Positions 24,431-24,931 of a stretch of 64,000 bases of DNA are shown here, piece by piece. Both the position numbers and the translations under genes were made by a program. Source of the DNA: Octopus vulgaris (taxonomy: Eukaryota); the NCBI GenBank assembly GCA_951406725.2, contig OX597839.1, forward strand, positions 32,860,001 to 32,924,000, in the 5' to 3' direction. The notes under the pieces are model-generated. The model did not search any database, was not told the DNA's origin, and was given only the letters and a program-made list of their open reading frames with translations. Within the stretch, counting starts at the first letter, position 1. Each line of letters opens with the position of its first letter.

Positions 24431-24436
<6 letters not shown>

Positions 24437-24931
24437 TTGCCATACTAATATGGCAGTCTAAATATAAGACTAAAGCTGTTGCTGATTAGTTTGGCGATAA
24501 CTATTAATATCCAGTAACGCTGCCGTAATCTCCTTTAGAGAGACTTAGTAATTTTAATATTTCTATTATTGAAAACAAGTGGATGTATTCCACTGTAACT
24601 AGGTAAATAAAATCTTCGAACAGACGGTCAGTAGTGACACCTGCGGGTCTGACTACGCTGCATTGATAAAGGGCAACAACCCTGAAACATGTCTGCAGAT
24701 GTCTGAACAGCAAGATGAAGCGGCTGACCTCCCCTGTTCGAAGGTTGTAATGGACGCAGGTTCGTGTGTCATATAGCTAGCTAGAGGCGATAGCCTCTTG
24801 GAGCTAATCAGCGACAGCTTTAGTCTTATATTTATAAGACTGCCATATTAGTTTGGCGATAACTATTAATATCCAGTAACGCTGCCGTAATCTCCTTTAG
24901 AGAGACTTAGTAATTTTAATATTTCTATTAT
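24431..24931 (+). mobile_element. Penelope-like pLTR / retrozyme-like non-autonomous element in (TA)n
   Basis: 85-bp direct repeat (24485-24569, 24847-24931). A 5' inverted copy (24431-24489) of 24804-24865. Internal hammerhead. (TA)n on both sides. Confidence 0.7.
24658..24698 (+). ncRNA. Minimal type I hammerhead ribozyme motif, U3-A8 core variant
   Basis: CTGCA-TTGATAA-AGGG(CAACAA)CCCT-GAAA-CATG-TC-TGCAG: 5-bp stem I, 4-bp stem II, palindromic CATG stem III, GUC triplet. Confidence 0.72.

Follow-up and report, generated by a model that had tools for sequence, protein, structure and literature searches.

The element at positions 24424 to 24931 of the analysed stretch (64,000 nucleotides of Octopus vulgaris DNA, referred to here as the window) belongs to a large non-coding family with a U3-A8 hammerhead core. 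Its copies end at two preferred 3′ positions, sit in TA runs and carry a hammerhead whose three helices and 3-8 pair covary. Judged by these sequence features, the family is probably a non-autonomous non-LTR retrozyme, and a Penelope-like reverse transcriptase (RT) would insert DNA copies of its RNA at (TA)n sites.

Anatomy of the window copy

The window copy consists of 1.2 monomers with a single hammerhead and an inverted arm, flanked on both sides by TA repeats. Its parts were located as follows.

24322-24432, no strand: (AT)n microsatellite, left flank of the target site (TRF, period 2, 55.5 copies)
24424-24489, minus strand: inverted 5′-truncated arm, monomer 320-362 plus 1 to ~26, with the short 3′ end of the family as its terminus
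24485-24846, plus strand: full 362-bp monomer in circular permutation, its left edge being the copy's own 5′ truncation point
24485-24569, plus strand: 85-bp partial-tandem repeat, copy 1
24658-24698, plus strand: minimal type I hammerhead (descriptor scan, covariation)
24658-62 and 24694-98, plus strand: hammerhead helix I
24663-24669, plus strand: hammerhead core from U3 (24663) to A9 (24669), with A8 at 24668
24670-73 and 24680-83, plus strand: hammerhead helix II, with G12-A14 at 24684-86
24687-24692, plus strand: self-complementary hexamer A15.1-U16.1, candidate inter-hammerhead helix III
24693, plus strand: predicted cut, after C17
24847-24931, plus strand: 85-bp repeat, copy 2, terminating at the family's long 3′ end
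24873-24931, plus strand: ~59-bp "tail" between the short (~26) and long (~85) 3′ ends
24930-24943, no strand: short (AT)n, right flank of the target site (direct sequence reading)

The two copies of the 85-bp direct repeat were 100% identical at a spacing of 362, as an earlier note on this DNA had described. The inverted truncated copy of the 3′ part that this note had placed before the monomer was likewise found, with the arm matching 24804-24872 at 88% over 69 columns and its final few bases blending into the TA run. A check for target-site duplication placed both ends of the copy in TA runs, in agreement with the (TA)n surroundings reported before.

The hammerhead parts were also as the note had given them, and the motif was the sole match in the 64-kb window to a core-plus-helix descriptor run on both strands. 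An Rfam scan of the window returned 13 matches at E≤10, none of them to a hammerhead family; hence, the evidence for a hammerhead is the descriptor match together with the covariation. All six reading frames of the monomer are interrupted by many stops, with no long stop-free frame and no RT or GIY-YIG domain, and no Pol III A/B boxes were found in the monomer with the strict consensus.

Two further features were noted nearby. An inverted repeat at 23764-23921 (48-nt arms, 92% complementary, 62 nt apart) adjoins a TA run and may be a MITE-like or other small inverted insertion. To the left of the (AT)n microsatellite, the segment 24230-24299 is tRNA-like (weak Rfam match, E 0.018) and is likely a SINE head.

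Copy number, core and covariation of the hammerhead

We have searched the 2.8-Gb genome with the 447-bp arm and obtained 2,867 candidates; all 40 that were scored were near-full-length copies with 95-100% identity. A 3′ tail pattern blind to the ribozyme gave 2,073 exact matches (control, 0), which, together with the closed frames, agreed with the proposed non-coding multi-copy family. Hammerheads of the window subfamily, defined by exact flanks without constraint on the seven core letters, numbered 208 (control, 0), and the cores of the 100 listed were TTGATAA in 95 and single-letter variants in five, with no C3-G8 form. In 30 loci selected by the tail, 22 distinct cores were covered and 20 of these were U3-A8, the remaining two having position 3 changed in one case and a deletion in the other. 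Thus, U3-A8 is the fixed core of the family, both in the listed hammerheads and in the core-blind sample, and neither random core decay nor a single-copy element was found. Arrays were also present, with hammerhead cores at 360-362-bp spacing.

The subfamilies obtained from the tail-selected loci had 82-92% identity to the window copy. In these, helix II is closed by G-C in place of A-U, helix I has A-U or G-U replacing a G-C, and hammerhead position 7, a free position, varies between T, A and C. In subfamilies C and D, the helix III hexamer has changed to another palindrome through a double change of its middle pair from A-U to G-C. This changed-palindrome class generated 1,760 matches (control, 4), with U3-A8 in 97 of the 100 listed, and the helix III class of the window generated 634 (control, 9).

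A search for C3-G8 (365 matches; control, 5) yielded a ~355-bp tandem sister family (loci L194, L083 and a subset of L068-L095). Its identity to the monomer was 63% (215/342 columns), with an alignment score of 152.5 compared with 35.6 ± 7.9 in 200 shuffles. When the ribozyme was removed, the values were 172/268 columns and a score of 123 (shuffles, 32.8 ± 7.7), and the sister family has two 3′ ends at positions matching those of the monomer family. The alignments therefore indicate that the two families are homologous, also aside from the ribozyme region. Many places on C1 (G000) carried a further abundant hammerhead-like family of the C3-G8 form, in which the helix II region is longer.

Covariation was assessed in 11 subfamily representatives. 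In this set, 96.5% of the cells were paired and 27 cells were changed on both sides, numbers that correspond to a handful of events because the 11 rows are hand-picked and related to one another. None of 500 shuffles scored as high, and the slid controls had no double-sided change. The double-sided changes occur in each of helices I-III and in the tertiary pair 3-8, which was U-A in six representatives and C-G in five. This supported the earlier proposal that U3-A8 is a compensatory change, the 3-8 positions being kept paired, and the core agrees with YUGANRA / GAAA / UH with a Watson-Crick 3-8 pair. Taken with the C3-G8 sister, the covarying helices I and II and palindromic helix III argue that a dimer-type hammerhead fold has been selected.

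Counted over the whole genome as pattern matches and not as curated ribozymes, the motif class comprised 5,122 U3-A8 forms (control, 575) and 3,099 C3-G8 forms (control, 179), the four 3/8 combinations together giving 9,615 (control, 1,430). Above control, the Watson-Crick forms account for ~7,470 of ~8,190 and the mismatched forms, by subtraction, for ~720. For the motif class searched, U3-A8 thus outnumbers C3-G8 in the octopus genome, whereas PMC3088659 describes it as a rare variant. Scans with CUGAUGA fixed would overlook more than half of this class in octopus. The surprise that the earlier note had implied for U3-A8 did not hold, since natural cases have been in print since 2011 and 2014 (PMC3088659, PMC4209133); such hammerheads are active in vitro according to PMC3088659, which cites Przybilski and Hammann 2007. 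Both the U3-A8 pair and the element class are already known.

Folding predictions gave a formation probability of 0.84-1.0 for helices I and II and of 0.0 for intramolecular A15.1-U16.1 pairing. The fold with a one-pair helix III had −3.1 kcal/mol against a minimum of −9.1 kcal/mol, that is, 6 above the minimum, and the self-duplex of the helix III hexamer had −4.6 kcal/mol. In these models, palindromic helix III is stable in the dimer only. The circular monomer had an MFE of −112.9 compared with −84.6 ± 5.8 in 100 shuffles (z −4.85), with 62% of it paired. The antisense circle folds almost equally well (z −4.52), so the fold leaves the functional strand unfixed. Dimers of PLE (Penelope-like element) hammerheads are reportedly a subject of Lunse et al. 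Minimal PLE-type motifs are described as silent when monomeric and weak as dimers (PMC4209133).

Insertion footprint, template and candidate helper

We have surveyed 121 arms of at least 50 nt in 74 non-overlapping loci, after dropping six overlapping duplicate loci. The 3′ ends fell at monomer 80-86 in 57 arms, at 18-27 in 42 and elsewhere in 22, and 85 of the 99 that ended in the long or short interval ran into TA. A preference for (TA)n targets was thereby observed. The 74 loci contained 41 divergent two-arm junctions. Among the inverted two-arm insertions in which each end could be classed as short or long, one short end was paired with one long end in 13/14 of the loci from the 447-bp query. 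This query favours long ends, and loci from the hammerhead pattern alone were used as a second set; one short and one long end were again found in 13/14 (p = 9e-4). The two 3′ ends, one per arm, are ~59 nt apart, and the window copy is of this short/long type.

The 5′ starts of the 121 arms were scattered over the monomer, with 4/121 near the cut site. Hence, the 85-bp repeat represents part of a second unit and not an LTR: the direct repeat seen by the earlier note is real, but it has no fixed left edge and does not qualify as a terminal repeat. A linear monomer cut by the hammerhead was rejected as RT template, given that 5′ ends were not enriched at the cut site. The hallmarks described for PLE insertions are a partial tandem, an inverted 5′ copy and a 30-40-bp one-sided tail (PMC8557442), the tail arising from two internal RT start sites and cleavage being AT-rich (PMC11167929). 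The Penelope-type integration previously suggested was borne out by the (TA)n target, the 5′ truncation, the inverted arm and the two fixed 3′ ends.

The arms reach 976 bp, and one insertion is a 2,000-bp 5.5-mer that ends at the long end, in TA, with four differences in 1,606 repeated positions. Divergence was 2.6% between units within an arm, 3.0% between arms of one locus (230/7,554) and 7.0% (median) between loci, as counted after 23 overlapping duplicate loci and arms under ~50 nt were dropped. Separate RNA templates for each arm were rejected as a general rule, based on the 3.0% against the 2.6% found within arms and on the subfamily letters common to both. The differences between units of one arm (25 overlapping duplicate loci dropped) were scattered and symmetric (139 vs 150), and CpG-enriched (72/299 vs 7.4% of sites). 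Such a pattern fits post-insertion decay of units that would have been identical at insertion. The divergence values fit a single RNA template read beyond its junction; this template could be circular or a homogeneous multimer. Identical units are equally compatible with a homogeneous tandem master and with a circle.

In the window copy and one other insertion, the arms disagree at the letter of monomer position 7. Unlike at most loci, the inverted and direct arms of the window copy differ in this subfamily-marking letter and in a 3-bp indel; in that one insertion, the inverted arm possibly had a second template.

The following series of events could generate these insertions. Tandem copies would be transcribed, and neighbouring hammerheads would pair via palindromic helix III and cleave the transcript at sites separated by 362 nt. 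The cut monomer would then be closed into a circle by a host ligase. A PLE RT/GIY-YIG protein would nick the (TA)n target, with cDNA beginning at two internal RNA sites (monomer ~26 and ~85), one per DNA strand. Passage of the RT over the monomer junction would yield the partial tandems, the multimers and the inverted second arm. Several points count against this reading: the ~59-bp tail exceeds the 30-40 bp in print (PMC8557442), cleavage was lacking in 8/9 retrozyme dimers from Xenopus (bioRxiv 2026.07.22.740005), and PLE insertion in vitro was independent of hammerhead cleavage (PMC11167929).

The last of these points bears on a second explanation, which we rate as unlikely, namely a non-autonomous PLE derivative that spreads by linear multimeric read-through of tandem masters, keeping its hammerhead while circles are uninvolved. 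Tandem arrays of near-identical units are indeed present, and for the anole PLE the hammerhead mutants were neutral for insertion, which used mainly uncut RNA (PMC11167929). However, the compensatory changes, which affect the 3-8 pair as well as all three helices, show that the fold matters to the spreading lineages, and the unit-specific differences did not recur across insertions (≤4 of ~45-60, mostly CpG).

The copies could also be the 5′-truncated pLTR ends of a yet-unfound autonomous, RT-coding Penelope-like element, which appears very improbable. PLE insertions are mostly 5′-truncated (PMC8557442), the footprint is of PLE type, and the searches cover the first 100 places among the matches listed. 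Against this, arms longer than one monomer pass into a further monomer, the maximum being 5.5 units, and 38 free 5′ flanks had no common adjacent sequence, with the exception of one duplicated locus type. RT and GIY-YIG sequences were absent beside the free 5′ ends examined, and the one same-strand hammerhead pair, 3.9 kb apart, encloses a duplicated gag-like fragment and no RT. This pair, on C2, was rejected as an autonomous PLE because the sequence there was duplicated locally and carries a gag-like fragment with a zinc knuckle.

At this locus (L061:1666-5820; G000:C2:52931500-52940500), each of the two retrozyme copies is fused to the gag-like sequence. This junction recurs on C1 (L161), which suggests a duplicated chimeric unit.

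For the preferred reading, in which a retrozyme is mobilised by a PLE, we have searched the genome with PF01541. GIY-YIG sequences were found at 148 places among the 150 scored of 6,136 candidates, and 16 of the 148 listed lay inside 781-aa stop-free frames. The one frame examined contained RT and GIY-YIG domains, and its Cys-x4-Cys-x2-Cys linker is consistent with the CX2-5CxxC motif known from Neptune and Nematis, the class being assigned by motif. This young Neptune-like PLE also has an upstream 479-aa frame, pLTRs, TA targets and a ~34-nt tail, and it was located as follows.

L126-L137, for example L129:244-5460; G000:C6:133343000-133350000: Neptune-like PLE

The hammerhead of its pLTR reads TTGATAA (U3-A8) and has the same hexamer as the monomer with a different helix II; its pattern gave 1,797 matches (control, 35). 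Helix I of this hammerhead consists purely of A-U pairs, and position 17 is U or A.

Comparison by blastn of 46 GIY-YIG loci with the monomer returned one neighbouring retrozyme copy and a 23-nt match (E 0.26) only. The Neptune-like pLTR aligned to the monomer with a score of 40, below that of shuffles (47 ± 6.8), and the retrozyme tail matched 14 PLE 3′ regions at the level of AT-rich noise. Among the part of the genome's PLEs examined, there was no autonomous element with the sequence or the 3′ ends of the monomer. The Neptune-like element was rejected as sequence parent of the monomer, with which it has no detectable similarity, and so stands as a candidate helper only.

Related systems and the CFAP100 intron

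Metazoan non-LTR retrozymes (PMC7229834; bioRxiv 10.64898/2026.07.22.740005) resemble the octopus family in their non-coding 150-450-bp tandem unit, a single type I hammerhead in each unit, low GC and self-paired predicted circle. Mussel retrozymes have 350-390-bp units that form circles (PMC7229834), compared with a unit of 362 bp in octopus. The octopus hammerhead differs in being of the minimal PLE type with U3-A8. The octopus insertions have a PLE-type tail and inverted arm, features undescribed for retrozymes in the portions of the two accounts compared, from which cephalopod families are also absent. Retrozymes have been argued to derive from pLTRs, with cleavage in 1/9 dimers and more than 40% of Xenopus copies in introns (bioRxiv 2026.07.22.740005).

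The Cercyon hammerheads of Schistosoma mansoni (PMC4209133) share the short helix I, the palindromic 15.2-16.2, the dimer requirement and U3-A8, and ~1,300 U3-A8 matches in Schistosoma are linked to Cercyon PLEs (PMC4209133). In the portion of that work compared, the Schistosoma matches are heterogeneous and mostly single, whereas those of octopus belong to homogeneous young tandem families. Also unlike Schistosoma, the octopus family has a homologous C3-G8 sister and a helix II of 4 bp, not 7-8. The EN+ PLEs Neptune and Nematis (PMC8557442, PMC11167929) have in common with the octopus insertions the partial tandem, the inverted 5′ arm, the one-end tail, the AT-rich or (TA)n target and the two 3′ ends; the octopus monomer differs in having no RT or GIY-YIG frame and a tail of ~59 bp as opposed to 30-40 bp.

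We regard the octopus family as a probable PLE-type retrozyme on the basis of these likenesses, membership hinging on cleavage and circles. No account of this family in octopus or other cephalopods was found in the open literature searched, and an entry in a repeat library such as Repbase or Dfam is possible. PLEs have been proposed as the mobilisers of retrozymes (PMC7229834), which, in the portions of the literature compared, is a hypothesis drawn from co-occurrence and pLTR similarity. The octopus family adds a footprint at the level of individual insertions, with two 3′ ends, one per arm, a TA target and multimers whose units look initially identical. Because the genome also has stop-free PLE frames, the mobilisation question is testable with natural parts, and the octopus families provide a naturally occurring series of changes in the 3-8 pair and in the dimer palindrome.

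A bolder and rather doubtful proposal is that the octopus families record the movement of retrozyme circles, in which a Penelope-like RT would begin at two fixed internal sites of a single circular RNA and continue over the junction, together with a pairing code in the helix III palindrome. The palindrome is common to some retrozyme subfamilies and the Neptune-like helper and is switched in the largest subfamily. If true, such a code would let helper and parasite hammerheads activate or avoid each other.

The host gene was identified through DUF4200 exons immediately upstream of the window, which match CFAP100 (best match, Octopus bimaculoides), and through the following exons.

4671-4829, 5764-5862, 11166-11288 and 15521-15604, plus strand: CFAP100 exons (tblastn)
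18161-18232, plus strand: CFAP100 exon 5′ of the host intron (tblastn)
32854-32964, plus strand: last CFAP100 coding exon found, 3′ of the host intron (tblastn)

These six plus-strand exons place the element in sense orientation in the last coding intron found (18232-32854), as the earlier note had it. Its further idea, that this copy could cut the pre-mRNA, fared less well, since a lone hammerhead cannot form helix III by itself; the models make cutting of CFAP100 pre-mRNA in cis unlikely, and any effect on CFAP100 is also unlikely. With 1.2 monomers and one hammerhead, the window copy is likely a dead-end insertion without cis cutting of this transcript. That it lowers or tunes CFAP100 expression by cutting, in cis or in trans via a matching palindrome, is extremely unlikely: the sense intronic position, the well-predicted helices I and II, the intact core and a hexamer common to thousands of other motifs are set against the lone hammerhead, the unfavourable one-pair helix III, the lack of cleavage by single minimal hammerheads (PMC4209133) and a young, ordinary family member in which signs of host selection are absent. 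Contigs from sequencing runs hold the stretch in part, in 19 rows with four organism labels from six studies, none of them listed as RNA; contigs from four runs were fragmentary, uninformative as to ends and strand, and are silent on expression.

Between L065:7465 and window position 4671, tblastn gave no CFAP100 exon for ~80 residues present in other mollusc orthologues. Argonauta CFAP100 is also without those residues, either through a real shortening or a low-complexity miss. A CFAP100 intron contains a Gly/Asp-reading trinucleotide satellite (13113-15284) with a 724-codon stop-free frame. On the minus strand, 62973-63998 holds a Ser/Pro-rich stop-free frame of 342 codons, which is probably an exon of a minus-strand gene.
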